Notes: generated by a model not told the origin, from the letters alone. A DNA stretch of 64,000 nucleotides from an uncultured Verrucomicrobiae bacterium (GCA_963788655.1 CAWBHS010000049.1:32001-96000); one strand, 5' to 3'. Numbered from the stretch's first letter, positions 10,491 through 59,800 are shown. Numbers and translations: made by a program.

Positions 10491-10553
10491 CGACGCTGGC
10501 GGAGTGGGGCGAACGCTTGACGACTATTCGTCGCGGCATTCCAAGTGGCGCCA

Positions 10554-10640
10554 GGTGGGGCGCGTCACTCCGTGCGCGCTGGTGAATTCACAGCATGCCC
10601 TTTGCTTCGTTCGCGGCGCGCAAAGGACTTCACGCCCTAG
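10554..10640. repeat. Degenerate GTRGGGCG-type REP pair
   Basis: GGTGGGGCGCGTCACTCCGTGCGCGC ... GCGCGCAAAGGACTTCACGCCCTAG. Confidence 0.45.
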
Positions 10641-17545: not shown

Positions 17546-17550
17546 GTAAC

Positions 17551-18927
17551 TCAATGCTGATGTCCACCGCCGGTCGCTGAGGTGCGAAGCTGGCTTTCGC
17601 TGTCCAGCAGGAAGTTGCCGTCCACCACGACTTTTTCGCCTTCCGTCAGTCCTTGATTCACGACCACTTGTCCGCCCTCGACATGAGATCCCAACTCAAT
17701 GCGCCGGGGAACGAAGTGTCCGCTGGTCACCTCCACAAAAACATACTGGCTGACGCCGGTGTCATACACCGCCGTCTGCGGTATCAACAGGCGTTCGCCC
17801 GCATCAACCTGGATTTCCGCGTTGGCGTAGTCATTGGGTTTGAACAGCCCGTCGGGATTGTCCATCACCAGTCGCGCCGTTGTGGTGCGGGTCTGATTTT
17901 CTGAATACGGGTAGATGAAATCCACCTTGGCGTGATAAACTTGGCCGGGATGCGCGATGGCCGTGACCTTCACGCCTTGTCCGACTTTCGCGTAAGGCAG
18001 TTCGTATTCGTAGAGCTGGGCGTTGATCCACACGGTGCTCAAATCCGCCACGCGGTAGAGCGTTTTCCCCAAGCTGACCATTTGCGCGGGATCAATGTTC
18101 TTCTCGATCACATAGCCGGTCACCGGCGCGCGGAGCTGCAGGGTGTCGGTCGGTTTGCCGGACTTCTCCACCGCGGCGATTTCGTCGTCGCTGATTTCCC
18201 AGAGTTTGAGCCGTTTGCGGGCCGATGCCGCCAGCGTCGCCGCTTCGGTCATGCTCTCCTGCCACACGACGTTGTTGGTCTGGGCCGCATCTTTCGGTGG
18301 AAGGTGTTTCAGCCGCTCACCATGCCGGTAGGCCAGCAGGTATTCGTATTGGGCCGAATACAATTCCGGGCTGTAAATGTCCATCAGCGGATCGCCCTGT
18401 TTCACGAACTGGCCCGGCTTGTCCACGTAAAGCTTCTGGGCCCAACCCATGATGCGCGCGTTCACGTTGGCCAGCCGGGTGTCGTCGTAAGTCACAATGC
18501 CCACGGTGCGAATCGTCACCACCGCGTCACCGTTCGTCACCGCCCGGGTGCGGATGTTGATGAACTGGCGCTGCGCCAGGTCCAGATCCACCGGGCTGCG
18601 ACCGGGAACAAGTTCGTTGGTGGATGCTGTCTGGCTGCTGTGCTCGCCGCCAGGCATCGGCATGTTGCCCATGTTCGTCTCACCTATGGCTGGCGTGTTG
18701 GTGGCGGCGGGTATCGGCATCTTCATGCCGGGCATGGACTGGTTCATTCCCGTCGTGCTGCCGTGGTCGGACGGCATCGTGGAAGACTGCATGTTCGTGT
18801 CCGTGTGATTGGCCTGAGCAGCGGCGTCGGATTTCTTCCGGCAACTCACAGCCGCGAGTGCCAGCGTGGCCAGGACCACGACTGCGACCGCGGCTTTCGG
18901 GATTCGATTGATACGAGGCAGCTTCAT
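17551..18927 (-). CDS. cusB: CusB-like RND periplasmic adaptor, Met-rich N-terminus
   Basis: Lipoprotein-like AVSC, GWAQKLYV, IYSPELYSAQYEYL, ADLSTVW, DFIYP, GNFLLDSESQL. Confidence 0.9.
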   Translation of the reverse strand: MKLPRINRIPKAAVAVVVLATLALAAVSCRKKSDAAAQANHTDTNMQSSTMPSDHGSTTGMNQSMPGMKMPIPAATNTPAIGETNMGNMPMPGGEHSSQTASTNELVPGRSPVDLDLAQRQFINIRTRAVTNGDAVVTIRTVGIVTYDDTRLANVNARIMGWAQKLYVDKPGQFVKQGDPLMDIYSPELYSAQYEYLLAYRHGERLKHLPPKDAAQTNNVVWQESMTEAATLAASARKRLKLWEISDDEIAAVEKSGKPTDTLQLRAPVTGYVIEKNIDPAQMVSLGKTLYRVADLSTVWINAQLYEYELPYAKVGQGVKVTAIAHPGQVYHAKVDFIYPYSENQTRTTTARLVMDNPDGLFKPNDYANAEIQVDAGERLLIPQTAVYDTGVSQYVFVEVTSGHFVPRRIELGSHVEGGQVVVNQGLTEGEKVVVDGNFLLDSESQLRTSATGGGHQH

Positions 18928-20333
18928 GGTTTTCTGACTTTCTCGGACGTGAGGAACGACGTTTCTCCGCCAACCAGTTTTTCCACCGTGGAGAAACCTT
19001 GCTCCCGATCCGCGACCGCCCGTTCGTAGGTTAGTTGGAATTCCAGCAGGACGCGTTCGGCATCAATGAGCGAGAGAAAATCGGATTTGCCTGACTCAAA
19101 CGAACGCTGAATCACTTTTACGTTCTCGTCCGCCTTGGGAATCAATGCGTCGCGGTAAAGGACAACCTTGCGCTCTGCGTCCTGGTACTGGAACAAGGCG
19201 AGTTGGAGGTCGGTGCTGAGGTGGTTCGCCCGGTCCCGGCGTTCCTGCAGCGTGGCGGCGTAACGACTCTCCGCCTCTCGCACGCCGGCGCGATATTTGC
19301 CCCACCAAAGCGGAATGTTCACTGAAAAACCAGCCACCACCGCGTCCTTGCCGCTGTCCGCCACTCCTGACATCCGGGCCGGACCGGTTTCAATGTAATC
19401 CACTCCCAGCGTCACGTCCGGATAGAATTCCTTTTTTTGCCAGCGCGATGTTCGCTTTGTCCTTCCCGGCCAGGTAATCGAGGCTCTTGAGTTCCGGGTT
19501 GGCGGCTTTCAACCGTTCGAGGAGGTTGGAGGATTCGGTGGAAAGTGTCGCTGGTACAATGTTGGTTGGAAACGACAGCGGCGCCTCCGCAGGGCGATTG
19601 AGGGCGGCGTTGAGCCGCGCCGCTGTCGGGTTCTTGAGGTCGTTAACGTGCGGAGACGGTCGCGGGTCTTGTCCAGTTCCACCTGCGCCTTGATCACATC
19701 ACCGTTCATGGCCGTGCCGGATTCATACTTTGACCGAGCGATTTCCTCGAATTGTTTGAGCAGTTCCACATTCGCTGCGGTGACGGAGATGGCGCGGCCC
19801 ATGTAGTAAAGTTCGTAGTAGGCCTGTTTGACCTCGTCGAACAACTTCAGTTTGGCGGCCTCGTATTGTTGCTGCGCGGCGTTCGCGCCTTCGAGCGCGC
19901 CCTCGCCTCGCAGTTTCAATTTGCCGAACCACGGGAACATCTGGCTGAGACCCACGCGTTGCTCCTGCGGTCCGACGCGCGTTTCGACTTCCTGAATAAA
20001 GTAACCATAGTTGAAGCGTGGGTCAGGCAGCGTGCGCGCCTGAGTGACCATCTCCAGCGCGGCTTTCCAACGATTGAAGGCCGCCTCCAGTTGCGGATTG
20101 TTTAACGCAGCGTAAGCAAGGTAATCCGGAAGGCCGGAGCTCGCGGTCAAGCTTGACAATCGGCCTGTGGCCGAGGCCCGGCTGGAGGACGGCGATGCGG
20201 TCGGCGCTTTGGTTTGCAGTTCCTTGAAAGCATGCCCCTCCTGAGATGTCGCGCAACCCACTGCCAGCAATAAACCGACACTTAGCAGCCAGCAGCGGTT
20301 CAGTTTCGTTCGACGGTTCCGTTTCCTGCTCAT
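18924..20333 (-). CDS. cusC: CusC/TolC outer-membrane factor (frameshifts ~19645 and ~19435)
   Basis: LAVGC lipobox, ARTLPDP, SQMFPWFGKLKLR, NIPLW, DFLSLIDAER; split over ORFs 19509..20333 and 18924..19415. Confidence 0.82.
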
Positions 20334-21824: not shown

Positions 21825-24270
21825 TCAGAGTGCCGTCTTCCGCAACCGCAGGGCGTTGCCGACGACCGACACCGAACTGAAGCTCATGGCGGCGCCGGCA
21901 ATCATGGGGTTGAGCAACAACGCCAGGAAGGGATACAGCACGCCGGCGGCAATCGGGATGCCGATCGCATTGTAGAAGAAGGCGAAAAAGAGGTTCTGCC
22001 GAATGTTCCGCATTACCGCCCGGCTCAGGTGAAAGGCCTTGGCAATGCCCATTAGGTCGCCTTTGACCAGCGTGATGCCTGCGCTCTCGATGGCCACGTC
22101 CGTGCCGGTGCCCATCGCCACCCCCACGTCAGCCGCCGCCAGGGCGGGCGCGTCATTGATGCCATCGCCAGCCATTGCCACCACGGCGCCCTGACGCTTG
22201 AGTTGTTTGACGATCTCGTGTTTCTCCTGCGGCATGACCTCGGATTTCACCTCGTCTATGCCCAATTCGCTTGCCACGGCTTCGGCGGTCTTCCGGTTGT
22301 CACCGGTACAGCATGATTATTTTGATGCCGAGTTGGTGCAGCGTCTGGATGGCTTCGCGGGTCGAGTCCTTGATCGGATCGGCAATGCCCAACAGCCCCA
22401 GGGCGTGATCGCCTTGGGCCACCCAGACGACCGTTTGGGCTTTTTCCTGGAGCGCGAGCGCGCGTTGGCTGAGTAGGTCGGTAATACTCACGCCGGCCTC
22501 ACGCAGGAACTTTTCTTTGCCCACACGCACCAGATCGCCCTGGATCTTGCCCTGCACGCCGCCACCGGTCGTGGACTCGAAGGCGTCCACGGACTCGAGT
22601 TGAATCTCCTTTTCCTTGGCCGCGTCCACAATCGCCCGAGCCAAAGGATGTTCGCTTTGTTGTTCGATGGAGGCCGCGAGCTGCAGGAGTTTCTTGTCGT
22701 CCAACTCTGCGGCAGGAACCATGTCGGTGATCTTTGGTTTGCCGGCGGTCAGGGTACCGGTTTTGTCGGTAACGAGGTGGGTTACCTTTTCAGTGCGTTC
22801 GATGGCTTCGGCGTTCTTGATCAAAATCCCCGATTGCGCCGCCCGGCCGACGCCAACCATGATGGACATCGGCGTGGCCAGGCCCAAGGCGCAAGGGCAG
22901 GCGATGATCAGCACGGACACGGCGTTGACCAGCGCGTAAGCCAGCGCAGGTACCGGTCCCCATAAGGCCCAGACAATGAACGTCAGAATGGCCGCGCCAA
23001 TGACCGCCGGCACGAAATAACCAGCGACTGTGTCCGCGAGCTTTTGAATTGGCGCCCGGCTGCGCTGCGCCTCCGAGACCATCTGGACGATTTGCGCCAG
23101 CAACGTTTCGCTCCCGACCTTCTCCGCGCGCATGAGAAACGCCCCGGTCTGATTTACGGTCGCGCCAATGACCTGGTCGCCCGCGCCTTTGCTCACCGGG
23201 ATGGGTTCGCCGGTGATCATCGACTCGTCCAGGTTGCTTATACCTTCAATGATGACGCCGTCCAACGGCACCTTTTCGCCGGGCCGGACGCGGAGTTGGT
23301 CGCCTTTCTGGAGTTCGTCAACCGGAACCTCTTCCTCCTGACCGTTCCGAACCCGGTGGGCCGTTTTGGCGGCCAGGCCGAGCAACGCTTTGATGGCCTG
23401 GCCGGTGCGGCTGCGCGCCTTGGCCTCGAGCATTGGCCCATCAACACCAACACGGTGATCACCGCCGCGGCTTCAAAGTAAAGCCCCACCTCGCTGCCGT
23501 GCCGAAATGACGCCGGAAAGATTTGCGGGAATACCACCGCCACGGCGCTGTAAAAGTAAGCTGCGCCCACGCCCACCATGATCAACGTGAACATATTCAG
23601 GCTGCGATTGACGATGGATTTCCAACCGCGCACAAAGAACAGACTGCCCGCCCACGAAGACCACCGGTGTCGTCAAGGCGAATTCGATCCATTTGGAAAT
23701 ACCCCTGGGGATGACGGCCTCCACATCAAGGCCCAACCAACCGCCCATCGCGATCAGTAACACTGGAATGGTGAGCCCCAGCCCAATCCAAAACTTGCGT
23801 GCCAGCGAGCGGATTTCCGCATCGTCCGCCGTCGGCGTAGCCACCGTCTTCGGTTCGAGCCGCATCCCGCATTTCGGACAATCTCCCGGATGGTCCTGCT
23901 CGATTTCCGGGTGCATGGGGCAAGTGTAGATGGTCCGGCGTCGAGGCGGGCGCGGGCGTTATCGACTCGAGCGCCATGCCGCATTTGGGGCAATCGCCGG
24001 GCTCATCCGAAACCACTTCCGGATGCATCGGGCAAGTGTAGCGACCTCCACTCGCCCGAGGCGGATCCGCATCCATTGCGCCGGGAAAATACTTTTGCGG
24101 TTCAGTGCGGAATTTTTCCAGGCAGTGTTGGCTGCAGAGTAGTAGGTGGTGTCCAGGTGCTCCTGAGTTCCGGCGGCATCTTCCGGCCGGATCTCCATAC
24201 CACAAACGGGATCTTTTCTGGTTCTTTTAGTGTTTGTTCCGGGTTTGGCGTTTTTCATTGATGTGCTCAT
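21825..24270 (-). CDS. copA: Cu(I)-transporting P1B ATPase with YHS and two YTCPMHP domains (several frameshifts)
   Basis: KDPVCGM, 2x [38 protein letters not shown] and MSFSS, spread over consecutive frames. Confidence 0.88.
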
Positions 24271-26161: not shown

Positions 26162-29100
26162 TCATGCCGGCACTTCGGTCACAACCGGCGGTGGCAGTTG
26201 GGTCTGCCGCCGGATGGCCCGCGAACGCCACAGGTAATAGATCGCCGGGAAGACCACCAGTTCCATGATCACCGAGGTGACCACGCCGCCGATCATCGGC
26301 GTGGCGATGCGCTTCATCACGTCGGCGCCCGCGCCGTGGCTCCACATGATCGGCAGCAGGCCGGCAATGATCACCGCCGCCGTCATGGCTTTGGGCCGGA
26401 CGCGCTTGACCGCGCCGTGGTAGATGGCGTCGCGCAGGTCGGCCAGGTGAGCGCATCAGTCCCTTTCTGCGTCCACTCGTCAAAGGCCAGGTCCAGATAG
26501 AGCAGCATGACCACGCCGGTTTCGGCGCTGATGCCGGCCAGCGCAATGAGGCCGATCCAGACCGCGACGCTCAGGTTGTAGTGCAGCCAGTAAAGCATCC
26601 AGATCGAGCCCACCAGCGCGAACGGCACCGCCAGCAGGACGATGGCGGTTTTGATCGCCGAGCGCGTGTTCAGGAAAATGATCAGCGTGATGATGAGCAG
26701 CGTGACCGGCACGACGAGCATCAAGCGTTGCTTGGCGCGCATGCATGTATTCGTACTGGCCGCTCCAGAAGAGGTTGTAGCCGTGCGGCAGGTTGATCTG
26801 GCCTTTGGCGATGGCTTCGTTGCACGGCGTGCTGGGCCATCTGCACGTAGGTGCCGACATCAATGTCTTTGATGTCCACGTAAATCCAGGCGTTGGGCAC
26901 CGGCGCCCTCGCTCTTGATGCCCGCCGGGCCGTCCACCACTTTGAGCGTGGCCAGTTCGCCCAGCGGCACCTGGGCGCCGGTGGGCGTGGGAATGACGAC
27001 CTGGTCGCGCAAGGCCTGCGAGGTCCTGGCGGTAATCCCGGTCGTAGCGCAGGTTGATCGTGTAGCGCTCCAGTCCTTCGACCGTCGTGGTGAGCGGCAT
27101 GCCGCCCAAGGCCACGGCCAGCACGTCCTGCACGTCGCCGAGGGTCAGGCCGTAGCGGGCGATGGCGTCGCGATTGATTTCGAACTCGACGTATTTCCCG
27201 CCCATGACGCGTTCGGCGTAGGCGCTGGTGGTGCCCGGCACCTCGCGGACCACGGCTTCGATTTGCGCGCCGATCCGTTCCAGCGTGGCCAGGTCGGGGC
27301 CGGCCACCTTGATGCCGACCGGCGTCTTGATGCCGGTGGAAAGCATGTCAATGCGCGTCTTGATCGGCATGGTCCAGGCGTTGGCCAGGCCGGGGAACTG
27401 GATCGCGCTGTTCATCGCGTCCACCAATTCGTCCGGCGTGCGCCGGCGGTGGGCGATGACGTTGCCGTCGTCGTCCTTGATGTCCACTGCCGGCCATTCC
27501 TCTTCCGGTTTGAGCATGATGGTGGCTTCGATCATGTTGAGCGGCGCGGGATCGGTGGCGGTGTCCGCGCGGCCGACCTTGCCGAAGACGTGTTTCACTT
27601 CCGGGAAGCGTCTTGATGATCTTGTCGGTCTGCTGCAGCAGTTCGCGCGCTTTGGTGACCGAGATGCCGGGGAAGGTCGTCGGCATGTAGAGCAGGTCGC
27701 CTTCGTAGAGCGGCGGCATGAATTCCGAGCCGAGGTTCTGGATAGGGAAACAACTTCCCGGCCTTGAAGGCCAATTCCTTGACCGGACCATCGGGCAACG
27801 AGTCGCGCGACCAGCCGGTTCCACGGCAGGAACACCCACAGCACGGTGATCGCCGACAGCGCTGACAATCCACCAGCGCCAGCGGATCGACCCAGTCAAT
27901 CAGCGGATGATAGATCCAGATCAGAAACCGGTTGATGGGATTCTTCTCCTCGGGCGGCGATTTTGCCGCGGATGAAATAGCCCATCAACACCGGCGCCAG
28001 CGTGATGGAGAGCAAGCGCCGCCGCGGCCATCGAGTAGGTCTTGGTGAAGGCCAGCGGCTTGAACAGCCGCCCTTCCTGCGCCTGCAGCGTGAACACCGG
28101 CAGGAACGAAACCGTGATCACCAGCAGCGAATAGAACAGCGTCGGCCCGACTTCGACGCGAGGCGTCGCGGATGATCTGCCAGTGCGGCTTTCTTGCCCT
28201 TGTCGTGCTCGAGATGTTTGTGGGCGTTCTCGATCATGATGATGACCGCGTCCACCATCGCGCCGATGGCGATGGCGATGCCGCCCAGCGACATGATGTT
28301 CGAACTGATGCCCTGGCCGATACATGACCAGGAACGAAATCAACACCGCGATGGGCAGGATCACGATGGCCACCAGCGCGCTGCGGAAGTGCAGCAGGAA
28401 CAGCAATGCACACCAGCGCCACCACGAGGCTTTCCTCGAGCAGCTTTTCTTCCAGCGTCTTGACGGCGCGATCAATCAGCGCGGTGCGGTCATAGGCGAT
28501 GGTGTATTGCACGTCCGGCGGCAGCGACTTCATCGCCTGGTCGAGTCGCTTCTTCACGTCCTGGATGACCTGCGCGCGCGTTGGCGCCGTAGCGCACGAC
28601 GACGATGCCGCCGACGGTTTCGCCCTCGCCGTTCAGTTCGGCGATGCCGCGGCGCATTTCGGGTCCGAATTGCACGTTGGCCACGTCGCGCAACAGGATG
28701 GGCACGCCGTTCGCGCCGACGCCCACGGCGACTTTCCGCAAGTCGATCGAGGTTCTGGATGTAGCCTTTGACGCGCAGGATGAACTCGCGTTTCGGCCAT
28801 TTCGATCGTGCGTCCGCCGACCTCGCCGTTGCTGCGCTGGATGGCCATGCTTGACGTGCGACAACGGAAGGTTGTAGGCGCGCAGTTTCACCGGGTCCAC
28901 CGTCACCTGGTATTGCTTCACGAACCCGCCGACCGAGGCGACTTCCGAGACGCCCTGGACGGCGCTCAATTGATATTTCAAATACCAGTCCTGATACGAG
29001 CGCAGTTCCTGCAGGCTGCGGTTGGTGGAGTTGATGGAATACATGAACGCCCAGCCCACGCCCGGTGGCATCCGGACCGAGCGTGGGCGTGACGCCGCGG

Positions 29101-29466
29101 GGCAACTGGCCGCCGATCTGGCTGAGATATTCCAGCACGCGGCTGCGCGCCCAATAGGGATCGGTGCCGTCCTGGAAGATCACATAGACGAACGAGAAGC
29201 CGTAGAACGAATAGCCGCGCACCACCTTGGCTTTGGGCACGGAGAGCATCTTGGTGGTGATGGGATACGTCACCTGGTCCTCGACGATCCGCGGCGCCTG
29301 GCCCGGATATTCGGTGTAAGATGATGACCTGCACGTCCGACAGGTCGGGGATGGCGTCGAGCGGGATGTTCTTCAGGGCATAGACGCCGCCCAGCACCAG
29401 CGCCAGCGTGGCCAGCAGGACGATGAACTTGTTCTTGAGCGAAAAATCAATGATGGCTTTGAGCAT
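26162..29466 (-). CDS. cusA: Second CusA/SilA RND permease (many frameshifts)
   Basis: [75 protein letters not shown] across successive frames. Confidence 0.85.
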
Positions 29467-29596
29467 AACGGCATAGCGGCGTTCGACGTGGGTGGGGAAA
29501 GGAATTGCAGGAGTTGACGGTAGGATGGGATCCCCATGTGATCACGCACATAGGAGTGCGCACCGAAGCGGTGGCTTCCCGATTGGCGCGCCAGCG

Positions 29597-29676
29597 TTTT
29601 GGAGTGCGGCGGTCCTCTGCCGCTATTCGAACGTTGAGACGCCGTTCGAAAGCGCCAGCGGACTGGCGCAGTCCAA
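29597..29676. repeat. REP doublet upstream of RAYT
   Basis: TTTTGGAGTGCGGCGGTCCTCTGCCGCTATT (29597-29627) and inverted AAAGCGCCAGCGGACTGGCGCAGTCCAA (29649-29676). Confidence 0.8.
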
Positions 29677-29755
29677 GAACTGGCGTCGTTTGCTGGGGCC
29701 GACAGGATGCGAAAATCTTCTCGCCAAGTTTGCAGGCGTTCGCCATCCTCACCGC

Positions 29756-30325
29756 ATGCCCCAGCCCCGGACTCCTTGGCCACATGCTCCCACTCATCAA
29801 CTCTCGGTGCGCGGCACGTACTTTGTCACTGCCAGCACCTATCGCAAAGCGCATCACTTCCGGGGCACGGAGCGCTTGCGGGTGTTGCACCGCGGCTTGC
29901 TGACCGTGGCCCGGGACTTTGCCTGGGAAGTCGAGGCTTGGGCGGTGTTCTCGAATCACTATCACTTCGTCGCCCATTCGCCGCCCAACGCCCCCGATGC
30001 CACCTACCTCTCGGACGTGCTGAGTGTGCTGCACGTCAGGACGGCCGCGTGGGTCAACCAACTCGATCATACGCCCGGTCGGCAGGTATGGTTCAATTTT
30101 CGTGAGACGCGGTTGACCTACCAGAAATCCTACCTGGCGCGGCTGAATTATGTGCACCAAAATCCGGTGAAACACGGGCTGGTCCGGGTGGCCAGCCAGT
30201 ATCCGTGGGGTTCGGCACGGTGGTTCGAACGTTCCGCTTCGGCGGCCATGGTGAAAGCCATCTATCGTTTTCGAACCGATCAGGTGCGCGTGGTGGACGA
30301 TTTCGATCCGGCGCCGGAGTGGTGA
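29756..30325 (+). mobile_element. rayT: REP-associated tyrosine transposase (RAYT, Y1/HUH)
   Basis: GTYFVT, AWAVFSNHYH (HUH), QVW, LNYVHQNPVKHGLV...YPWGS; REP doublets on both sides. Confidence 0.88.
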
Positions 30326-30345
30326 GCGTGCGGCGCGCGGATGCG

Positions 30346-30444
30346 AAAGCGGCAGAGGACTGCCGCAGTCCAAAACGCTTCGCGACGTTTGAGCCGGTCC
30401 GAGCGGGCGCCAGCTTTTGGACTGCGGCAGTCCTCTGCCGCTTT
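30346..30444. repeat. REP doublet downstream of RAYT
   Basis: AAAGCGGCAGAGGACTGCCGCAGTCCAAAA (30346-30375) and its exact reverse complement (30415-30444). Confidence 0.85.
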
Positions 30445-30485
30445 CGAACATGAGCCGGGGCACCATTTCTCCAACCACGCCAATG

Positions 30486-32615
30486 TTAGTGTTGAAGCTC
30501 ATGCTCCTTGCGCCAATTCTCCTCCGCGATTTTTCCATGTTTCACCGTGCTGGTGGGCACCAGGTCCATGTCGCACTTGGGGCACTTCCCTGGCTGGTCG
30601 GAAACCACATCGGCATGGCTCGCCATCGGGCAGGTGTAGAGCGTTGGGACCGATGGATTGCTCTTTGAGTCGCCGCGCGGGTTGCCGGACTCGGAGCGGT
30701 TCAGGGGAACCAGTTTCATCCCGCAAATCGGACAATTGCCCGGCTGGGGCTGCTTTACCGAAGGATGCATGGGGCAGGAATAGATTTCAGTTTCCACTGG
30801 GGATGAGCTCAATCCCGGTTTCCAATAGGATCTTTCAAGCGCGGCGACTCCGCTTTGTCTCGTTCCGATGAAGCGGCCGGGGCCGTCAACGGCGGGGTGC
30901 TCATCACTGGAATAAGGGTCATGCCGCACTTGGGGCACTTGCCAGGTTTGGCTTCGTGTACGTCACTGTGTTCCGGCATCGGGCAGGTGTAATACAGGAC
31001 TTTTCCGCCGGGATGCAGTTTTTCAAGCGTGCTCTTCGACACAGGCACCAGCGTCATGCCGCAAATCGGGCATTTGCCGGGATGATCGTATTCAATCGAA
31101 ATGTGCTCGGGCATTGGGCACACATACACCATTGCTGCCGATTCCGAGACTGTATTCACGGGTGCCGCATTTGTGTCGGTGGACGTTACGGAGTCGGCGG
31201 TGGTGGCCTGCTTGGGTTCGATCATTTTCTGGATCGCCTCGCGGAGTTGGCTTTCGGAATCGAGCATGAACTGGCCGGACGTCACCACGCGTTCGCCTTC
31301 TTTAAGCCCGGCGAGCACTGATACATGTCGTTTTCCGCGCGTGGACCGAGCACGACCGTGCGCGGCTCAAACCGTCCGCCATCCAGCGCCACGAAGACCG
31401 TGTTCTTCTGGCCGCTGCGCAGCACCGCGGAATCCGGAACGAGCAAGCGCCGACGGCGCCAATTCGGCATGCAGCTCGACGCTGGCGAACATGCCCGGCT
31501 TGAGGAAGAAGCCGGGATTGTGAAACTCCATCCGCACCCGCACGGTGCGGGTCTTTTCATCCAGGTACGGATAAATGTAGGTGACCCGCCCGCGAAACTT
31601 GCGGTCCGGCAGATAGGACAAGGTCACGACGGCTTCCTGGCCGAGTTTAAGGTAAGGCAGATCCTGTTCGTAAATCTCCGCCTGCACCCAGACCAATCCC
31701 AAGATCGGCCAACCGGTAAATCTTCATGCCGGCATTGACCATCTGTCCTTCGACGATGCGTTTCTCAGTAACAAATCCATCAATGGGCGCGAGGACTTGG
31801 AGCGTCTTCCTAGGTTGCCCGCTCTGGTCCAGTTCGGCGATTTGCTGGTCGGAAATATCCCAGTATTTCAACTTGAGCCGGGCGCTGGCTCGCAGCGCAT
31901 CTTGGCCGGAGTCTTGGCTGGAATTCGCTTCGGAATTCGTGGTGCGACGGGCGAGCAGATACTCGACCTGGGCGCTGTAAAGTTCCGGCGAATAGATTTC
32001 GAACAGCGGATCACCGCGATGCACCTGTTGGCCGGTCGTGTCCACGTAAAGCTTCTCGATCCAGCCCTTGAACTTGGTGGTCACGTCGGCCAGCGCGGCC
32101 TCGTTATAGTGGATGGTGCCCACCGTGCGGATGACCCGGCGCAAGGGGCCGTCGCGTGACGAAGCCCGTGCGGATGCCCATGTTCTGAATGGTGACCGGA
32201 TCAATGACGATGTCGGAGGCCTCCGCGGCGGCCGCTTCATCTTCATAAACCGGCACAAATCCATGCCCATCGGGGATTTGCCCGGCTTGTCGGAGATGTA
32301 AGTCGGGTCCATGGGAGCACGCCAATACTTGATCTTGCGCTCGCCCGAAGGGGCAGCTTTCCCGCTCGTGGCCGCGACCGTTTGCCGTCGCATGGGCGTC
32401 AGGCGCATGCCGCAGATCGGGCAGTTGCCCGGGTGATCCTGAATCACCTGCGGATGCATGCCGCACGTATAGAGCGTCTTGGCTTTCTTGGTGGAGGTGG
32501 CCCCGGCGGACTCATCGCCGGCAGCCTGATTACTCGCCAACCAATAGGTGCCGGCGCCAACGAGGGCCAGCACGGGAAGTCCGATGAACAGGAATCGTTT
32601 CATGCTTGTCGTCAT
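30486..32615 (-). CDS. cusB: Second CusB-like adaptor with ~6 heavy-metal-binding repeats (frameshifted)
   Basis: YTCGMHP, APMDP..GKSPMGMDL, GWIEKLYV, YSPELYSAQ, GQFMLDSESQL, then YVCPM, YTCPM, YSCPMHP, YTCPM. Confidence 0.82.
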
Positions 32616-32754: not shown

Positions 32755-32925
32755 CCCCCTCACCCCGGCCCTCTCCCCCAGGGAGAGGGAGGGCCCTTCG
32801 CCGCGCTCGACTAGCGGCGAAACGCCCAGACCGCACGAAACGGGGCATCTCCAAACATGGATTCGAATCACAGGTGCGTGTCATCGGCTTTTCCCTCTCC
32901 TGGGGGAGAGGGGCAGGGTGAGGGG
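32755..32925. repeat. REP doublet of the CCCTCACCC..GGGAGAGGG family
   Basis: 32755-32790 and inverted 32893-32925; same family as the repeats at 10.0-10.5 kb. Confidence 0.8.
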
Positions 32926-51562: not shown

Positions 51563-51817
51563 AAACGCTCCATCTGCTCAACACGTCTCCGGCAGCCCAC
51601 GTCGTTAGCCTGCCTGGAACTACCGCAGGGCCAAGTGCCAACCATTTAACGCGCGACCGCTGGAAATACCAAGCGATTCTTTTACCATTCCCGATGGAGT
51701 TGGAGTGGGCTTTTGGTTTTGAATTACATTGCCGCTCGGTCACCTTGAGGCACAATGGCCATCACATTCTCAGGTGTGATGAACTGTGCCCGGCGACTTG
51801 GTTACTTGGAATTCATA

Positions 51818-52426
51818 ATGAAATCGTTGCAACGGAATATAGTGGTTTCCGTGGTTTCCTTGCTCGCATGCCAGGGGCTCGAGCTAATTGGTCACGCCGC
51901 GGCATTCGACTTCGCTCGGGCCTCGCGCGCCGTCCCCAAGCCGCGCGAGATCTGGCCAATGGTTAAACAGTTTACGGTGCCGCTGGAGTTCACCGTCATT
52001 TCCGATGAAATCGTGGTTAGCGATACTGATCCCTCCAAACGCTTGCGGAAGGTGACCGCCCATTTCTGGAGCCAGAAACTCGCGGGCAAGAAATGGGGGC
52101 ATCGCTGTGTCATCTTCCTGCCGGCAGACAATTCACCAAACCTCACCCCAAAGCGGAAAGGCAAGGTCGCGATCATTGGTTCGCCACCTTACGCCTATTT
52201 CCCGGTTCACGTGGATAAATACGGCGAAACGATTGCCGCCCGAACCGGCTATCCCACGATGGTTCTTTCGAATCCTGGCGAATATCCGGATGGTTCCGCC
52301 ATCGAACACGACATCGGCGTTTTAAACCGTTTGCGGAAGGAAACGGGCGAGAATTACTACCACATGAATTGCCAGTTGGCCGTCGTGTACATCCAGGCCA
52401 TGAACGGCTTTCAACAGTTCCTCGGC
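51818..52426 (+). pseudogene. Truncated PqaA-like alpha/beta-hydrolase-type exported protein
   Basis: Signal peptide, WGHRCVIFLP, IQAMNGFQQF; the frame runs into the duplicated segment at ~52427 before any nucleophile motif. Confidence 0.5.
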
Positions 52427-53132
52427 TGCGATCGCCTCGCCATTCCCATCCGGTATCCAGTATCTGGCATCCAGCATCCAATATTCGTCCCTACTTCAAT
52501 TCCGCCAAAATCTTCTTGGCGTCGGCCACGTAAGGAGCGTTGGCATCCAAGGTCACGGCCTTTTGCAGGGCGGCTTTGCTGTCGGAGGACTGTTTGAGTT
52601 GGTAATGGGCCATTCCCAGATAGTACTGCAGTTCGCCGTCGGTGCCGCGTTGCACGGCGGCTTGCTTCAGCAATTGGGCGGCGCGTTGGTAATCTTTGCG
52701 CTGATAGACGGCGAGGCCCAGAGCTTTGGCAACCTCCGCGTCGCCGGCGTAGGCTTCGCGAGCTTTGGAGGCATGCTCGAAAACCTTGTCGTAGTCCACT
52801 GGCGGTTGGAGGTAAAGCAAGGCCAGTTGCTTGTTGGCCGGGGTGAACAATGGGAAACGCGCCAGCGCCTGCGCACAGGCTTGTTTGGCGGCGTCCAGGT
52901 TGCCCTGCTGCCGGTAAATCGTCGCAGCCGCCATCAGTGCCGGGACGTAGTCCGGTTGCTCCTTGAGCGTGGCCCGCACCTGGGCCTGGCCGGCGACCGC
53001 TTTGGCGGGGTCGGCCGCGAGTTCGTTCATCTGGAGAAAGCTTTTGGCGCTTTCGGCGCGCGCAAAGTTCGGATTGGTTTCTAACGCGCTTTGCATTCGA
53101 TTGGTGGCGTCCGACACCTGCCCGATGCTGTA
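52427..53132 (-). repeat. Diverged duplicate of the TPR-gene 3' end and its downstream flank (orphan fragment 52491-53135)
   Basis: Direct repeat of ~56741-57452; near-identical in the middle, diverged toward 53130. Confidence 0.92.
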
Positions 53133-53204
53133 CATAATAAATAAAGTGACAGGTTCAAAGTTATTGACAACTTACGCTCGCTTCCGGCACATTTGAGATC
53201 ACCT

Positions 53205-54172
53205 ATGAGATTGGCACGAATCAAAGTTCACGGGCGAAGTGCGGTGTATCACTGCATGTCGCGAGTGGTGGCTGGACAAGCCTTGCTGGATGACCTCGGC
53301 AAGGAGCAGCTCGTTCAAATCCTCTTTACGCTCGCCACTTTCTGCGGGATTGAGGTCATTACTTACTGCATGATGTCCAATCACTTCCATATCCTCGTCC
53401 GGTACCGGAGAAGCAGAATCCATCCGACCAGGAATTGGTCGAACGAATGGAGGCATTGTACGGCCCGAAAGGCACTTTGGTGCAACTCGCCAAGAAAGGG
53501 CTGGCAAATCACGGCTGCGTGGACCAAGACATCCGAGAAGGAATGTTGGAGCGGATGGGGGACGTATCGGCGTTCATGAAGGAACTCAAACAGCGGTTCA
53601 GCCGCTGGTATAACCGACAGACCGGACGTTTCGGCACCCTGTGGGCCGAGCGGTTCAAAAGCGTTTTGGTAGAGGATCAGCCCAGCGTCGTCGAAACCCT
53701 GGCCGCCTACATTGACTTGAATCCAGTGCGCGCCGGATTGGTGAATGATCCCAAGGATTATCGTTTCTGCGGCTATGCGGAAGCCTTGGCGGGAAATAAA
53801 GCGGCGCAGGCAGGTTTGCTGAGTTTTCAAAAGTCCAAAGAATGGAAACAGGCCAGCGCCGAGTATCGGCAGCGATTGTTTGTGGGAGCCGGTACGGCAG
53901 GACGAAGTGATAAAGCGTTGCTGGACCGGGAACAAATCAAGCGCGTGTTGGCCCAAGGCGGAGAATTGAGCTCAGCGCAGATCCTGCGGTTACGCCTTCG
54001 TCATCTGACGGATGGGGCGGTACTGGGCTCGAAGTCGTTTGTGAACGAGATTTTCGCATTACACCGGGAAAGATTTGGCGCAAAGCGGCGGAGTGGGGCA
54101 CGACCGATTCGGGGAGTGCCATTGGCGCACCTGAGCGTTTTGCGTGATCTGCGCGTTGGCGCGATCACATAG
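53205..54172 (+). mobile_element. Y1/HUH (IS200/RAYT superfamily) transposase, long form (frameshift ~53401)
   Basis: VYHCMSRVV, YCMMSNHFHILV, FMKELKQRFSRWYN, GTLWAERFKS, YIDLNPVRAGLV..PKDYRFCG; TTGACA at 53164. Confidence 0.88.
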
Positions 54173-54330
54173 GTCGAGGCGAGCAAGGCGGAGCGCGCCG
54201 CTACTCTCGGATTTGGCCGGATTTCGTGGTTCATACTTGGGCCTTCTTGGTTCGTCGTCCTTCGCTCATCCTACTACATCCTCTGCACATCCTCTACAGA
54301 TACCAGATACCAGATGCTGGATGCCGGCGG

Positions 54331-54510
54331 GTAGGGCGAGACTCCCGTCGAGCCCAAACTTCTCCTCATCATTGCCAATCATCCAAGACCATGAGCGCGG
54401 GAAGTGTTGGTATTTCAAACGTCAGGGATCTCTCAGGTTCAAGCCATACGTATTGGAAATGAGCGTGGAGAATCAGGGAGAAATCAGGGCTCGACGGAGT
54501 CTCGCCCTAC
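54331..54510. repeat. REPIN-like hairpin element, copy 1
   Basis: GTAGGGCGAGACTCCCGTCGAGCCC ... GGGCTCGACGGAGTCTCGCCCTAC with a conserved core. Confidence 0.9.
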
Positions 54511-54577
54511 CGGCACCCGGAGGAAAATGAGATGCCGGATGCCGGATACCGGACGGCGGATTTTAAAACAATAATGC

Positions 54578-54615
54578 TTGGCAGAATGATATGTCAGGCA
54601 TAGTTTGTCTGACAT
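54578..54615 (+). promoter_or_regulatory. TA promoter and operator
   Basis: TTGGCA-N17-TAGTTT overlapped by the inverted repeat ATGTCAGGCA..TGTCTGACAT. Confidence 0.6.
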
Positions 54616-54889
54616 GAAAACGCTTACCATGCGAGATTTGAACCGGAAGACAGCGGGGGTGCTGGACGCACTGGAGCGGGGCGAGACTTTTGAACTGCAC
54701 CGGAACGGCAAAGTCATTGGCTATCTGACGCACACCGCGCCGCCTCCGGAACGGAAACCCGATTGGCAAGCCCACCTTGATTGGCTGAAGCGGCAGCCGA
54801 AAGGGCGCGGCAAGCATTTGGTGGCTGAGTTTGAAGCCGACCGCCAGCGTCTCCGCGCTCGTGAAGAGGGAGTGGGTGGCGTCCAATGA
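54614..54889 (+). CDS. Phd/YefM-type antitoxin
   Basis: MKTLTMRDLNRKTAGVLDALERGETFELHRNGKVIGYL. Confidence 0.85.
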   Translation: MKTLTMRDLNRKTAGVLDALERGETFELHRNGKVIGYLTHTAPPPERKPDWQAHLDWLKRQPKGRGKHLVAEFEADRQRLRAREEGVGGVQ

Positions 54890-55359
54890 AATTCGCGGCC
54901 GACTCCAGTGTCCTGGTCCGATTATACCTCGACGCCACCAAAGCGGACGCCATTGCACGTTTTCTGGCGGATGCCGCCAGCGTGGTCAGTGTTTCCGACC
55001 TGGCGCGAATCGAAGTGCTGAACGTGCTGCTGCGAGACCCGGAACTGGGTGCGGCCGCCAAGTTTGAAGAGGACCTGGCCGAAGGGATTCGCCTGCGCTC
55101 AGAACCGGTGGTTTGGCCGGACGTTTTTCAGCAAGCCGAGAGCCTGGCGAGGCGATTTACGCGCACGCTCCGTCCGGGCGGGCACGACTTGGTGCTGGTG
55201 GCGGCCGCAGTGGTGATGGGGGCCACTTGGTTTCTGTCCTTCGACCGGAATTCGCGCCAACGTCCGCTAGCTGGCGCCGCCGGACTGCACGTTTGGCCGG
55301 CACTGGACAAAGATGAGAAGGGCTTGATCCGGCACGCCTCGCGGCAGGCAACGAGCTGA
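54886..55359 (+). CDS. vapC: VapC/PIN toxin
   Basis: ADSSVLV, EVLN, HDLVLVAAA, FLSFD; ATGA overlap with the antitoxin. Confidence 0.87.
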   Translation: MKFAADSSVLVRLYLDATKADAIARFLADAASVVSVSDLARIEVLNVLLRDPELGAAAKFEEDLAEGIRLRSEPVVWPDVFQQAESLARRFTRTLRPGGHDLVLVAAAVVMGATWFLSFDRNSRQRPLAGAAGLHVWPALDKDEKGLIRHASRQATS

Positions 55360-55424
55360 CGTGGGGGCGAGGTGGGTTGATGCCGGATAGCGGGTGCCGG
55401 ATGCCAGTTGGCGGGTGGCGGCGG

Positions 55425-55594
55425 GTGGGGCGAGACTCCGTCGAGCCCAAACTTCACCTCATCGTTGCCAACCTTCCGAGACCGTGAGCGCGGGAGGTGT
55501 TCGCGTTTCAAACGTCAGGGATCTCTGGGGTTCACGCCAAACGTATTGGGAATGAGCGCAGGAGAAATCAGGGCTCGACGGAGTCTCGCCCCAC
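55425..55594. repeat. REPIN-like hairpin element, copy 2
   Basis: GTGGGGCGAGACTCCGTCGAGCCC ... GGGCTCGACGGAGTCTCGCCCCAC. Confidence 0.9.
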
Positions 55595-55639
55595 CGGCGA
55601 ATGGAGGCTGATGAGCGAAGGAAACGACTCGCACCGTCA

Positions 55640-55677
55640 TTGACAACCTGAAGTTGGTGAATCAAGATTTGATTCAC
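55640..55677 (+). promoter_or_regulatory. TA promoter and operator
   Basis: TTGACA at 55640; perfect palindrome GTGAATCAA-GAT-TTGATTCAC (55657-55677) just before ATG 55679. Confidence 0.7.
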
Positions 55678-55678
55678 G

Positions 55679-55936
55679 ATGAAGACAGCAAGCATTCGCG
55701 ATTTGCGAACCCGGTTTCCGATGTTGGAGGCCTGGCTGAAGAACGGCGAGCAAATCGAGATCACCAAGCGCGGCGAACCGGTGGCCCGGCTGGTTCCGTC
55801 GGCCCGAGGGAAAAAATCCAAGTTGGTCAAACCGGACATCATGGCGCGGTTGAAGATGACGTGGGGAGATCGCGTATTTTCCACCGCCGAAGTGGCCGAA
55901 ATGCGAGCCGCGGAAGGGGAGGGTGAGGAAGGATGA
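55679..55936 (+). CDS. Phd/YefM-type antitoxin
   Basis: MKTASIRDLRTRF...GEQIEITKRGEPVARLVP. Confidence 0.88.
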   Translation: MKTASIRDLRTRFPMLEAWLKNGEQIEITKRGEPVARLVPSARGKKSKLVKPDIMARLKMTWGDRVFSTAEVAEMRAAEGEGEEG

Positions 55937-56384
55937 TTGCCTTTCCGGACACTTCCTTTCTGTGTGCCCTCTATCGCCAACAAAGCAATTCCCGCCTGGC
56001 GGCAAATCATTTCGCCGCCATGACTGAACGACTCCACGTCTCGGCGCTGCTGCTTTTCGAATTTCGACAATCGATTCGGTTTCAGATTTTCCGCCACCAA
56101 CAGAAACCCACGGTCGGATTCGCACAAGGAGAAGGGACCAAGGCCCTGGCCGATCTGCAATCGGACTTGGCTGGTGGTGCTGTGGTTGTGGCCGCAGTGG
56201 ACTGGACAGATGTGCTGGCGCTTGCGGAGAGGCTTTCCGCGCAGCACACGTCGGCGCTGGTCACCGGAGCCTGGATATTCTGCACGTGGCGACAGCGTTG
56301 CACCTGGGCGCGCGAGAATTGCTCAGTTTCGACGCCAACCAACGACGGCTGGCCACCGCGGAAGGGTTGGTGGTCAAGCCTTGA
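55933..56384 (+). CDS. vapC: VapC/PIN toxin (frameshift ~56260)
   Basis: PDTSFLCALY, FEFRQS; restoring one G gives GHRSLDILHVATALHLGARELLSFDANQRRLATAEGLVVKP*. Confidence 0.85.
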
Positions 56385-56550
56385 AATGCGGCGTTTGACA
56401 CAACGGCCAGATAGCTTTCCAAAACGCCGGGTTGCAACGGGAAGGGCTTTGTACAGCACGCTTCGGAACAGGAAACGGGCTGACGAGGATTACGTGAGAT
56501 GCTGGATATCGGCTGCTGCACACCGGATTCCGGATGGCAGATGCCGGCAG

Positions 56551-56723
56551 GTAGGGCGAGACTCCGTCGAGCCGAAATTGTTCCTCATCATTGCCATACC
56601 ATCCGAAACCGTGAGCGGCGGGAGGTGTTCGCGTTTCAAACGTCAGGGATCTCCCAGGTTCACGCCAAACGTATTGGGGATAAAGCGTAGGAGAAATCAG
56701 GGCTCGACGGAGTCTCGCCCTAC
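56551..56723. repeat. REPIN-like hairpin element, copy 3
   Basis: GTAGGGCGAGACTCCGTCGAGCC ... GGCTCGACGGAGTCTCGCCCTAC. Confidence 0.9.
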
Positions 56724-56810
56724 CGAAGTCTTTATGGTGGTGCAATCGCCTCGCCATTCCCATCTGGTATCCAGTATCTGGCATCTGGCATCAGCATCCG
56801 ATATTCGTCC

Positions 56811-59800
56811 CTACTTCAGCTCCGCCAGAATCTTCTTGGCGTCGGCCACGTAGGGAGCGTTGGCATTCAGGGCCACTGCCTTTTGCAGGGCGGCTTTGCT
56901 GTCGGAGGACTGTTTGAGTTGGTAATGGGCCATCCCCAGGTAGTACTGCAGTTCGCCGTCGGTGCCGCGTTGCACGGCGGCTTGCTTCAGCAACTGGGCG
57001 GCGCGTTGGTAATCTTTGCGCTGATAGACGGCGAGGCCCAGGGCTTTGGCCACTTCCGCGTCGCCGGGGTAGGCTTCGCGGGCTTTGGAGGCATGCTCGA
57101 AAACCTTGTCGTAGTCCACTGGCGGTTGGAGGTAAAGCAAGGCCAGTTGCTTGTTGGCCGGGGTGAACAATGGGAAACGCGCCAGCGCCTGCGCACAGGC
57201 TTGTTTGGCGGCGTCCAGGTTGCCCTGCTGCCGGTAAATCGTCGCAGCCGCCATCAGCGCCGGGACATAATCGGGTTGCTCGTTGAGCGTGGCCTGCACT
57301 TGAGTCTGGCCCGCCACAGCTTTAGTAGCGTCGGCTGCAAATTCGTTCATCAACAGAAAGCGTTTGGCGCTTTCAGCACGCCCAAAGTCCGGTTTGGTTT
57401 CCAGGGCACTTTGCATCCGGGTGATGGCATCGGCCACCTGTCCGACGCTGTAGTGGGCCATGGCCAGGTCATACAACATGCCCGGGTTGCCGGTGAGTTT
57501 TAGCGAGCTTTCTTGGAGCAGACTGAGCGCCCACTTGTAATCCTGCGCCAAATACGCCAGGCGGCCCAGGACATAGGCCACGTTGGGATCGTCCGGCGCC
57601 AGATCACGGGCGGTTTTCGCCAGTTCCAACGCTTTCTTCGGATCCTTGAGCGGTTGGGCGTACAACCTCGCGAGTCGCATAACTACTGCCACGGCTTTCG
57701 GATTGGCCTTCAGGGTCGTTTCGTAAGCCGTGCGGGCTTTGTCCCAGTCACTGGCTTTCTCGTAAATGGCCCCCAAGCGCAGGGCCGCAGCCGGGTCGGC
57801 GGGTTGTTCCTTGAGCATCTGCTCCAGCAGGGCTGCGGATTGGGGATCGGGCGCATTGGCATCGAGGGCGAGCACTTGCAAACGCTTCTGAGCATCGGCC
57901 TTGCCTTTGATCTCCGGCGACGCTTGGACGGCTTTTTGCAGAGCGGTTTGCGCAGCCTTTTCCTGGCCGGCCATATACAGCGCCATGCCCAGGTGGAATT
58001 GCACCTCTGGTTCCTTTGCCAGCTTTTGTGCGCTCTCCCGCAGTAACGTCACCGCCGCCGGATAATCACCACGCTGGTAATACAACCACCCGAGCGTGTC
58101 GGCCAATGCAGTGTCGTTGGGGTTTTGCTTGCGGGCGTCCTGGGCCAGTTCAAAGGCCTTGTTCGGTTCGTTCAAATGTTCCGAGAGCAGATAGGCCAGG
58201 TTGTTTTGGACGGAGCTCATGTTGGGATTGATCGCCAGCATGGCCTCATAGGTCTTTCTGGCCTCGGCGAACTGTTTGAGCCGTTCCTGGATCAACGCTT
58301 TCCAAAGCATTGCGTCCAGATCTTTGGAGTTCTGAGCCAACCGGGCGTCCAAGGCGGCCATGGCTTTTTGATCCTGGCCGGCTTTCATATAAAGTCCGGC
58401 GAGCTTTGTGTGCGCTGCAGAAAGCTCGGGATTCAATTCGATGGTCTTTTTGAGAGCAGCCTCCATTTCCTGGTTCTTGCCGGCGGCCTCGTAAACATTG
58501 GCGAGCATCCAAATTAGGTCAGCGGACTTGGGCTGTTTGGCCAGGTGGCTTTGGAGGCGTTGGATGGCCGCGTCGTAATTTTTTTCATCCACGTCCATAC
58601 CCGCCAATTGATTGAGCGCCGGCAGGAAGTCGGGCGAGAGTTTCAGTGCCTGTTCGAACGTTTGCCGGGCCTGCGATTTGAAGTTGGCTGCCTGGGGCGA
58701 CCCTTCGACCGCCTTGGCTTTCTGCCGCAGCACCACTCCGGCCAGCAGCGGCACTCTGGCGTCCTTAAGACCCCGGTCCATTAGATTGCGACAAAGGGCC
58801 AGCGCTTCATCGAACCGGTCCATGGATTGGTACGCCTGGGCCAGCAGAAACTGGGCGCGGGGCGCGTTGGGATTATTCTTCAGGAACTCCACCATCAGCG
58901 TGACAGCGGACGCGGGGTCTTTGGTGCGATTCTCCAACTCGGCCAGCAAATAGACCGCATCGGCATAATTCGGGTACATGGCGACAAGCTGCTTCAGGTC
59001 ACGGATGCTTTTGTCCACTTCATTGGCTACCAGGTAGGCGACGGCCCGATGGTAAAAGGCCATCACCGCCCCCGGGTATGTTTCCAGCAATTTGCTCAGT
59101 TGGTCGATGGCTTCTTTGGTTTTGCCTTCCGCCAGCTTGAGCCGTGAATTGAGCATCATGGCCTCGAGATTGATCGAGTCCTGCCGCAACACGTTGTCCA
59201 CCCACTTCGCGCACTCGGTGTAGTTGGTTTCAGACAAATAGGCGTTGGCCAACTGGTTGATGGCCGGCAGGTAATCCGGCACCTTGTCCACGATCTCTTG
59301 GAGCACCTGCTTGCCGCCTTCCATGTCGCCCGAAATGATTTTGTATTGGGCGTAGTTCAACCGTTGCGGGGAGCGATACGGCGTCAATGCTTCGGCCGCT
59401 TTGAATTCTTCATCCGCCTTGACTTGGTTGGTTTGCGACAGATACACGCTGCCCGCGCCCCAATGGGCGGCGGCGGATTTGGGGTCCAATTTCAACGCTT
59501 GTTGATAGGCAGCGCCGGCTTGGGTGAAGTCTCGCGTTTTGTAGTAGAGTTTGCCGAGCGCGACTCTGAAAAGCGGCGGTGTTCTCGGCTTGCGGCCGAA
59601 GGGCTTCCAGTCGTTGCTTGACCAATTCGAGGTGTTGGTGCTGTAGATCGTGTCGGGCAACAATTCGAAGCGCCTCCGGCTGGGTCGGCTGTTTTTGCAG
59701 GACATAATCCACTTCGTTGAAGGCATTGGTGAACTCGCGGTTGGCCAAGTACACTTGGGCCAGCTTCACCCGCGTTTCCAAGTCATCCGGCGTCAGTTCC

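Follow-up and report, generated by a model that had tools for sequence, protein, structure and literature searches.

In sedentary chromosomal integrons with Vibrio-type repeats, hairpin repeats alternate with small co-oriented operons, among them self-regulated toxin-antitoxin (TA) modules. Repetitive extragenic palindromic sequences (REPs) form another well-described family of hairpins. When two inverted copies share one long hairpin they are called REPINs (REP doublets forming hairpins), and clusters of REPINs adjoin each of the three REP-associated tyrosine transposases (RAYTs) of Pseudomonas fluorescens SBW25 (PMC3116915). According to PMC3333891, binding and cleavage by the Escherichia coli RAYT require a 5' GTAG together with a mismatch in the stem, and the operon hicAB takes the place of the REPtron at the yafL-fhiA site in 24 strains. 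PMC3733652 describes conserved spacers of 20-100 bp in head-to-head REP dimers and reports GTAG repeats in the verrucomicrobium Opitutus terrae. Here we describe a locus in DNA of an uncultured Verrucomicrobiae bacterium (GCA_963788655.1 CAWBHS010000049.1:32001-96000), where a gene for a Y1/HUH transposase is followed by three hairpin units that alternate with two TA operons. All coordinates are positions in this 64-kb stretch, referred to below as the window.

We consider that this locus is probably a REPtron-like REPIN cluster with two addiction modules in a recombination-prone islet, and not a dedicated cassette system. An earlier note, made from the bare sequence, had interpreted the same components as a system for the capture or shuffling of gene cassettes. 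Its identification of the parts (a Y1 transposase, REPIN hairpins and two TA modules) stood up to analysis, whereas we found no support for cassette capture or shuffling.

Three REPINs downstream of a transposase gene

Along the + strand, the locus consists of the following elements, in this order:

53205-54172, + strand: gene for a Y1/HUH transposase from a RAYT-like clade of 322-aa proteins, with Pfam Y1_Tnp matches in both halves
54327-54514, + strand: unit 1, two GTAG-tagged REPs head to head on either side of a conserved spacer of ~100 nt
54614-55359, + strand: TA operon 1, with an antitoxin gene (54614-54889) and a PIN/VapC toxin gene (54886-55359) that overlap by 4 nt
55421-55598, + strand: unit 2, a REP dimer with 39-nt arms of 87% complementarity, the GTGG tag matched by CCAC
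55679-56384, + strand: TA operon 2, with a Phd antitoxin gene (55679-55936) and a PIN/VapC toxin gene (55933-56384)
56547-56727, + strand: unit 3, a REP dimer with 36-nt arms of 86% complementarity

The three units are REPINs, each made of two inverted GTAG-tagged REPs around a lineage-specific 100-nt spacer. They are direct copies of 178-188 nt, which agrees within a few bases with the three direct copies of 170-180 bp noticed before. The repeat families that they contain are 86-94% identical over 64 nt and their spacers are 84-90% identical; unit 1 has gained 1 nt in its left arm and 9 nt in its spacer. A 20-nt core word from the units occurs three times in 64 kb (0.02 expected), and a 20-mer from the arms occurs five times in the window (0 expected), always at the units, with the sixth arm carrying a 1-nt insertion. 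All six arms conform to GGT(A/G)GGGCGAGACTCC(C)GTCGAGCC. The conserved core and the GTRG-led REP arms of the earlier description, which are GTAG or GTGG in the individual copies, were thus recovered. Within each arm, GT(A/G)G is followed by a short imperfect palindrome of 3-5 plus 3 base pairs around a 2x2 internal loop.

The two arms of a unit pair over 36-39 nt at 86-87% complementarity and form one long hairpin. The sole difference between the arms of different units is compensated on the opposite side, with GTAG/CTAC in two units and GTGG/CCAC in one. Folded as DNA, unit 2 reached -54 kcal/mol (z -7.2 against shuffled sequences). Folded as RNA, its two strands reached -104 and -95 kcal/mol (z -8.3 and -7.1 against shuffles).

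Such a stable RNA fold, together with the position of each unit just 3' of a + strand gene or operon (the Y1 gene, TA operon 1 and TA operon 2), would also be expected if the units were fixed cis-regulatory parts of the operons, acting as terminators or as mRNA-stabilising 3' structures, immobile and next to a transposase gene by coincidence. We regard this as quite improbable. No T run follows the hairpins and the terminator scan made no call at the units, Rfam returned no family at the gathering threshold in the whole window or at E up to 1 in 53000-57000, and base pairs predicted within the spacer are often broken across the three copies. In addition, the REP family of the arms is spread over 81 assemblies among the matches listed, and this spread points to a mobile origin of the arms.

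Target-site duplications were not seen in the sequence at the ends of the units. An inverted pair at 54258-54279 and 55601-55622 (22 nt, 82%) was rejected as a candidate feature, being no better than many chance pairs. Elsewhere in the window, at least five other REP-dimer families occupy ordinary intergenic sites, with arms of 22-38 nt and spacers of 22-125 nt. REP-dimer-like hairpins lie at 4028-4160, 8624-8695, 10045-10354, 30344-30446 and 32756-32925, and the genome is rich in such elements.

The transposase and the REP family in other genomes

The Pfam matches on both halves of the gene at 53205-54172 confirm its earlier assignment as a Y1/HUH transposase. Its HUH motif (HFH, codons 60-62) and its tyrosine motif (YIDLNP) are invariant in 26 homologues. 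The protein belongs to a large clade: 7793 of 8000 scored candidates were homologues at E <= 0.001, and the close members measure 320-323 aa. Some of these long-form homologues are labelled RayT or transposase by their source, and those with a named origin come from Verrucomicrobiota. In the window, a run of G between codons 66 and 67 of the gene has lost one base, at position 53402. A tblastn search with the 322-aa homologue P0002 aligned residues 1-66 in one frame and residues 67-322 in another, the two frames overlapping by one base at 53402. The lost base is therefore the only defect of the gene, which is otherwise collinear with P0002 at 82-84% identity; the closest homologues (P0002, P0004, P0005 and P0007) lie at 80-84% identity.

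An AlphaFold model of P0002 (mean pLDDT, the predicted local distance difference test score, 70.8; poor beyond residue 225) found its best fold match in 4ER8, a structure of the E. coli RAYT in complex with a REP hairpin, with a target-normalised template modelling (TM) score of 0.72 and an E value of 2e-6. The TnpA proteins of IS608 and ISDra2 came next (target-normalised TM 0.5-0.66). As modelled, the product of the Y1 gene has a RAYT-like fold. At the sequence level, a search of the PDB with one homologue returned nothing, and a profile of the 26 sequences gave only a weak match to ISDra2 TnpA (E 4.5e-4). Thirteen plasmid records matched the protein, all below 60% identity and 80% coverage, and are thus uninformative about the context of the gene. 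No left-end or right-end hairpins were found flanking it. A small GTAG-like palindrome after the stop codon (54187-54204) was rejected as an element end, as it is unique in the window and its flank folds like shuffled sequence. The gene ends 155 nt before unit 1; on its other side, the 72 nt that separate it from the repeat junction at 53132 contain no hairpin.

For the distribution of the REP family, species-representative genomes were scanned with the arm 20-mer, and 123 loci were fetched, 80 of them with full flanks, for a total of 1.12 Mb. The 20-mer was present in at least 124 stretches and in 81 assemblies among the matches listed (counted by accession prefix). Taxonomic labels among the matches listed are mostly those of Verrucomicrobiota, with a few from Victivallales/Lentisphaeria, Armatimonadota, Acidobacteriota and Planctomycetota; contamination of genome bins could explain the labels from outside the phylum. 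The source genome and its close relatives are absent among the matches listed. For a REP family, one unchanged 20-mer across several orders of Verrucomicrobiota and a few other phyla seems a broad distribution. The REP string was not found in the literature searched, which did not cover supplementary REP tables (e.g. of PMC3733652).

With three mismatches allowed, the 123 loci hold 148 REP sites. They include 41 distinct doublets with short spacers and 14 distinct doublets with spacers of 88-250 nt; some of these spacers are common to different genomes, and none resembles the core of the units in the window. We then recorded the nearest open reading frame (ORF) on each side of every REP site, which gave 168 entries, 165 of them distinct. 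Domain scans covered 138 of these, from loci L001-L079, leaving out four long ORFs for their size and 23 ORFs from short loci without flanks. The neighbours are ordinary genes, such as those for leucyl-tRNA synthetase (LeuRS), ribosomal protein L28, RibBA, topoisomerase I and sigma-70. TA-like domains were confined to one PIN, one DUF433 and one NYN among the 138 ORFs, as compared with none among 121 control ORFs located at least 4 kb from any REP site. This tabulation of neighbours reveals no detectable TA enrichment beside the REP sites of other genomes.

Long-form Y1 homologues were absent from the 1.12 Mb of REP-bearing loci (tblastn, E 1e-5), and the same search returned no match for either antitoxin, the first PIN toxin, the first piece of the second PIN toxin, or the gene upstream of the locus at 51755-52450 (geneX). 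At the nucleotide level, blastn of the window against these loci gave three short matches, none from a close relative. One locus in the collection does combine the window's REP family with a transposase. In the Verrucomicrobiota metagenome-assembled genome (MAG) that holds locus L019, a short RAYT gene of 201 codons (10035-10640, minus strand) has this REP family on both sides; its product matches NCBIfam REP_Tyr_transpos over profile positions 9-145 of 146 (E 7.7e-17), below the cut-off. L055 has a related RAYT, with another REP at its flanks.

Several of the fetched loci have features of their own. L019 (9960-11215) also contains two nearly identical REP-containing segments 434 nt apart. At a contig end of a Victivallales MAG (L012, 1-560) there are four tandem copies with a period of 167 nt, each starting with the REP 20-mer. 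In two loci of one MAG (L011, 4805-4957, and L080, 301-458), the long doublet spacers are made of GGAT-containing heptamer-like repeats in inverted halves, with 84% identity between the two spacers over 118 nt. Finally, in L046 (10001-11510) a REP doublet on one side and another REP on the other enclose a gene with an NYN domain (PIN-like) and a 102-codon ORF; among the loci inspected, this is the one small nuclease module, apart from those in the window, that has the window's REP on both sides.

Toxin-antitoxin operons, heptamer arrays and flanking repeats

The two TA operons are co-oriented and different, as had been noticed before. Their PIN toxins gave no BLASTP alignment with each other and the N-termini of their antitoxins are 31% identical, so that the modules are mutually unrelated. 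The toxin of operon 1 matches PIN at E 1.5e-9, and its antitoxin is only weakly Phd-like (E 0.012). The antitoxin of operon 2 scores 29.2 bits against the Pfam Phd cut-off of 29.8 and lies above the cut-off of NCBIfam phd_fam. The toxin gene of operon 2 has a frameshift near 56259-56262, which the earlier note had not mentioned; the piece formed by its last 40 codons aligns, in another frame, with PIN positions 91-118. Reading of the sequence revealed a palindrome next to each antitoxin start codon: TGTCAG-N11-CTGACA (54592-54614) overlaps that of operon 1, and GTGAATCA-N5-TGATTCAC (55657-55677) adjoins that of operon 2. Each module had been credited with its own promoter, but the consensus scan gave no + strand promoter upstream of either operon. 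PADLOC assigned no defence family to the C-terminal part of the Y1 protein, both antitoxins, the first PIN toxin or the first piece of the second.

Short direct repeats are a further component of the locus. Heptamers of the GGATRCCRGATRCC type match 25 times in the window against 3.0 expected and form seven arrays, six of them at the locus:

52445-52484, inverted orientation: array in the left copy of the flanking repeat
54297-54327, + strand: array of the CAGATAC/CAGATGC type, abutting unit 1
54530-54561, + strand: array of the GATGCCG type, between unit 1 and TA operon 1
55378-55421, + strand: array abutting unit 2
56497-56546, + strand: array abutting unit 3
56759-56793, inverted orientation: array in the right copy of the flanking repeat

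One array abuts the left arm of every unit, in keeping with the GATRCCR-like heptamers that had been reported in front of each copy. The possibility that the heptamers are part of the REP element was rejected, since none of the 148 REP sites of other genomes carries them; the heptamers are instead a trait of the window's lineage. Between the sole array outside the locus (4191-4239) and a REP dimer of another kind (4028-4160) there are 31 nt, and an association of heptamers with hairpin repeats may exist in this lineage.

These components bear directly on the interpretation as a cassette system, in which the Y1 enzyme would cut the folded units and capture, excise or reshuffle whatever lies between them, in the manner of IntI and attC, with the TA modules as stabilising cassettes. 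The layout would fit such a system: hairpin, module, hairpin, module and hairpin follow one another beside a HUH gene, the parts are co-oriented, the modules are unrelated, and all three window copies of the unit lie at one locus. The E. coli RAYT, moreover, can recombine between REP sites in vitro (PMC3333891). Even so, we consider a HUH/REPIN cassette system very improbable. The arms belong to an ordinary dispersed REP that stands in other genomes singly or in doublets beside ordinary genes, a scatter that the earlier note itself had held against its interpretation, and with one PIN among 138 neighbours against none in 121 controls this scatter applies to the REP arms here. In L019 it is a short RAYT that this REP flanks, and no long-form Y1 gene was present in the REP loci. 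At the locus itself there are two modules only, the enzyme gene and one of the toxin genes are broken as sequenced, and no consistent cassette boundary can be drawn, as heptamers stand on both sides of TA operon 1 and none stands upstream of TA operon 2.

The signatures of integrons were likewise missing. No integrase domain or IntI was detected in the 48 window ORFs scanned, an absence that is not decisive on its own because an array of the CALIN type (cluster of attC sites lacking integron-integrases) would lack one as well, and attC core sites (RYYYAAC / GTTRRRY) number zero on either strand in 54200-56850. A literature search for HUH-based, integron-like cassette systems found no precedent, turning up only unrelated work on group II introns. 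It is highly unlikely, in our judgement, that long-spacer REPINs and heptamer arrays together act as HUH-driven recombination sites, a single-stranded DNA analogue of the integron that collects TA modules.

The surroundings of the locus suggest another way in which it may move. The block that contains the Y1 gene, the units and the TA operons is 3.6 kb long and is exactly the insert between two direct repeats of 712 bp:

52427-53132: left copy of the 712-bp direct repeat (based on blastn between the flanks and on TPR Pfam matches)
52491-53135, minus strand: 3' fragment of a TPR gene, 214 codons, inside the left repeat copy
56741-57452: right copy of the 712-bp direct repeat, holding the 3' end of the intact TPR gene
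56811-59726, minus strand: intact TPR gene, 971 codons

In blastn of the two flanks, the repeat copies are identical at 646 of 712 positions (91%), and both junctions between block and repeats are clean. Identity is roughly 94% in the left part and roughly 80% in the right part, with a central stretch of ~157 bp free of mismatches. Between the TPR coding sequences of the two copies there are 39 synonymous and 18 non-synonymous differences, with a ratio of non-synonymous to synonymous differences per site (pN/pS) of 0.14. This ratio indicates that the copies are alleles that diverged while working and not a fresh duplicate made in situ, and the pattern resembles the outcome of a crossover in the 3' end of the TPR gene between alleles that had diverged. 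On the left side, the gene upstream of the block (geneX, 51755-52450; no Pfam match) resembles its relatives only up to residues 223-232, at the start of the left repeat. Of the seven homologues compared, five extend 100 or more residues further, and the missing C-terminal part was found nowhere in the 64-kb window. A rearrangement breakpoint at or just inside the left repeat is indicated by this loss of similarity. Coding sequence of geneX may persist in the initial 12-24 nt of both repeat copies, on the weak evidence of 3-4 matching residues. Searches of the 3.6-kb block against plasmids and phages in distant mode gave no match.

Because the block is bracketed by diverged 712-bp direct repeats, its gain or loss would be attributed to homologous recombination and not to the HUH enzyme. 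An alternative account makes the whole array passive, with the 175-nt and 712-bp direct repeats providing homology for RecA and with modules or the entire block being duplicated, deleted or exchanged among strains with no dedicated enzyme involved. The direct repeats are long and identical enough for this, and the mainly synonymous differences between the 712-bp copies (39 against 18) with the central match of ~157 bp form the pattern expected of a crossover. A passive array nevertheless leaves unexplained how three copies of the unit came to stand between unrelated modules, and we think it unlikely as a full account.

The same repeats might be suspected of being an assembly artefact, in which the duplicated end of the TPR gene and the island would mark a chimeric join of two strains in the metagenome assembly. 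The repeat copies do have the appearance of alleles from different strains (identity 91%, pN/pS 0.14), and several genes in the window are split. On the other hand, sequences that are 91% identical over 712 bp should be distinct enough to be kept apart by an assembler, both junctions are clean, and either answer would leave the units and TA modules within the block as they are. We hold a chimeric join to be highly improbable.

The split genes are an outer-membrane efflux gene (18924-20333), a P-type ATPase gene (21825-24205) and an RND transporter gene (26480-30538). Each of them appears as consecutive same-strand ORFs, and the outer-membrane efflux gene is broken by an in-frame stop, as judged from the ORF frames. 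An intact RND gene is located at 13823-17554, and the split genes look like a decaying second metal-efflux cluster.

Under the interpretation that we favour, a REPtron-like REPIN cluster with two addiction modules, the REPINs would be non-autonomous elements. A RAYT-type Y1/HUH enzyme would bind the folded REP, cut and rejoin single-stranded DNA and copy the hairpins in single-stranded form. REPINs may then have accumulated beside the RAYT-like gene by local hopping, probably into the abutting heptamer arrays. The two Phd/VapC operons would be independent addiction modules, each with its own regulation, that came to occupy this permissive site as well. The hairpin downstream of each operon probably doubles as a terminator or insulator, while the whole 3.6-kb block would move by homologous recombination through the 712-bp repeats. 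As to the acting enzyme, two candidates are nearly balanced. The adjacent long-form Y1 protein is suggested by its position, by the REPIN cluster next to it and by its 4ER8-like fold. A short RAYT encoded elsewhere is suggested by the arrangement in L019 and by the lack of any long-form gene in the REP loci, and we lean slightly towards the latter.

A number of observations fit this interpretation poorly. A single arm is no more stable than shuffled sequence when folded, and the three copies, all in consecutive intergenic gaps and in one orientation, are more ordered than a random scatter of REPINs would be. The 100-nt core matched none of the 123 fetched REP loci, so that dispersal of this particular unit lacks support. 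The Y1 protein is twice as long as known RAYTs, and it reaches 44.1 bits with NCBIfam REP_Tyr_transpos against a cut-off of 80, covering only profile positions 71-146 of 146. REPINs occur on the downstream side of the gene only, and both the Y1 gene and the second toxin gene are frameshifted. The upstream REP flank of the Y1 gene may have been lost in the rearrangement, and the frameshifts may be real decay, because several window genes are split, one of them by an in-frame stop. Sequencing error in G runs may alternatively have caused the frameshifts.

Comparison with known systems

If the locus is a REPIN cluster of the ordinary kind, it would be a clear example, outside the Proteobacteria, of REPINs clustering beside a RAYT-like gene and of TA modules settling in a REPIN hot spot, as hicAB did at the E. 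coli REPtron site, and its diverged direct repeats would mark how such islets pass between strains. If it were a cassette system after all, it would represent a second, HUH-based route to gene-cassette arrays. Two by-products of the analysis may outweigh the locus itself in value, namely a REP 20-mer that is common, unchanged, to 81 assemblies among the matches listed, and a 322-aa RAYT-like clade with thousands of members and no known substrate.

Sedentary chromosomal integrons resemble the locus in the alternation of similar hairpin repeats with small co-oriented operons, including TA operons. They differ in that the locus has no integrase in 48 ORFs and no attC core sites, that its units measure 178-188 nt, and that its arms belong to a dispersed REP whose neighbours in other genomes are ordinary genes. 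With the TnpA proteins of IS200/IS605 elements (IS608, ISDra2), the second-best structural matches, the transposase has the Y1 HUH fold in common, but its gene is much longer and is not flanked by left-end and right-end hairpins. ISCR/IS91 and Helitron-type HUH enzymes also move adjacent passenger genes; they belong to another HUH class, work by a rolling-circle mechanism and use ori/ter ends. No ori/ter-type ends were noticed at the locus, where no search aimed at such ends was made.

The REPINs and REPtrons of P. fluorescens SBW25 and E. coli are closer. Here as there, a GTAG tag precedes, on the 5' side, an imperfect palindrome whose stem contains a mismatch, a single long hairpin arises from two inverted REPs, with the arm change compensated, and the copies are clustered beside a RAYT-like gene, whose predicted fold is closest to 4ER8. 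Unlike those systems, the locus has heptamer arrays abutting every copy, copies that are separated by whole operons and not tandemly reiterated, REPINs on one side of the gene only, and a neighbouring enzyme of 322 aa that contains an insertion, is extended at its C terminus and scores below the cut-off of the RAYT model. Its spacer of ~100 nt is at the top of the 20-100 bp reported for REP dimers (PMC3733652). The last comparison is with the yafL-fhiA site of E. coli (PMC3333891). There the TA operon replaces the RAYT and its bacterial interspersed mosaic elements (BIMEs), whereas here two TA operons alternate with REPINs; in both cases one chromosomal site is contested or shared by a RAYT/REP locus and a type II TA operon.

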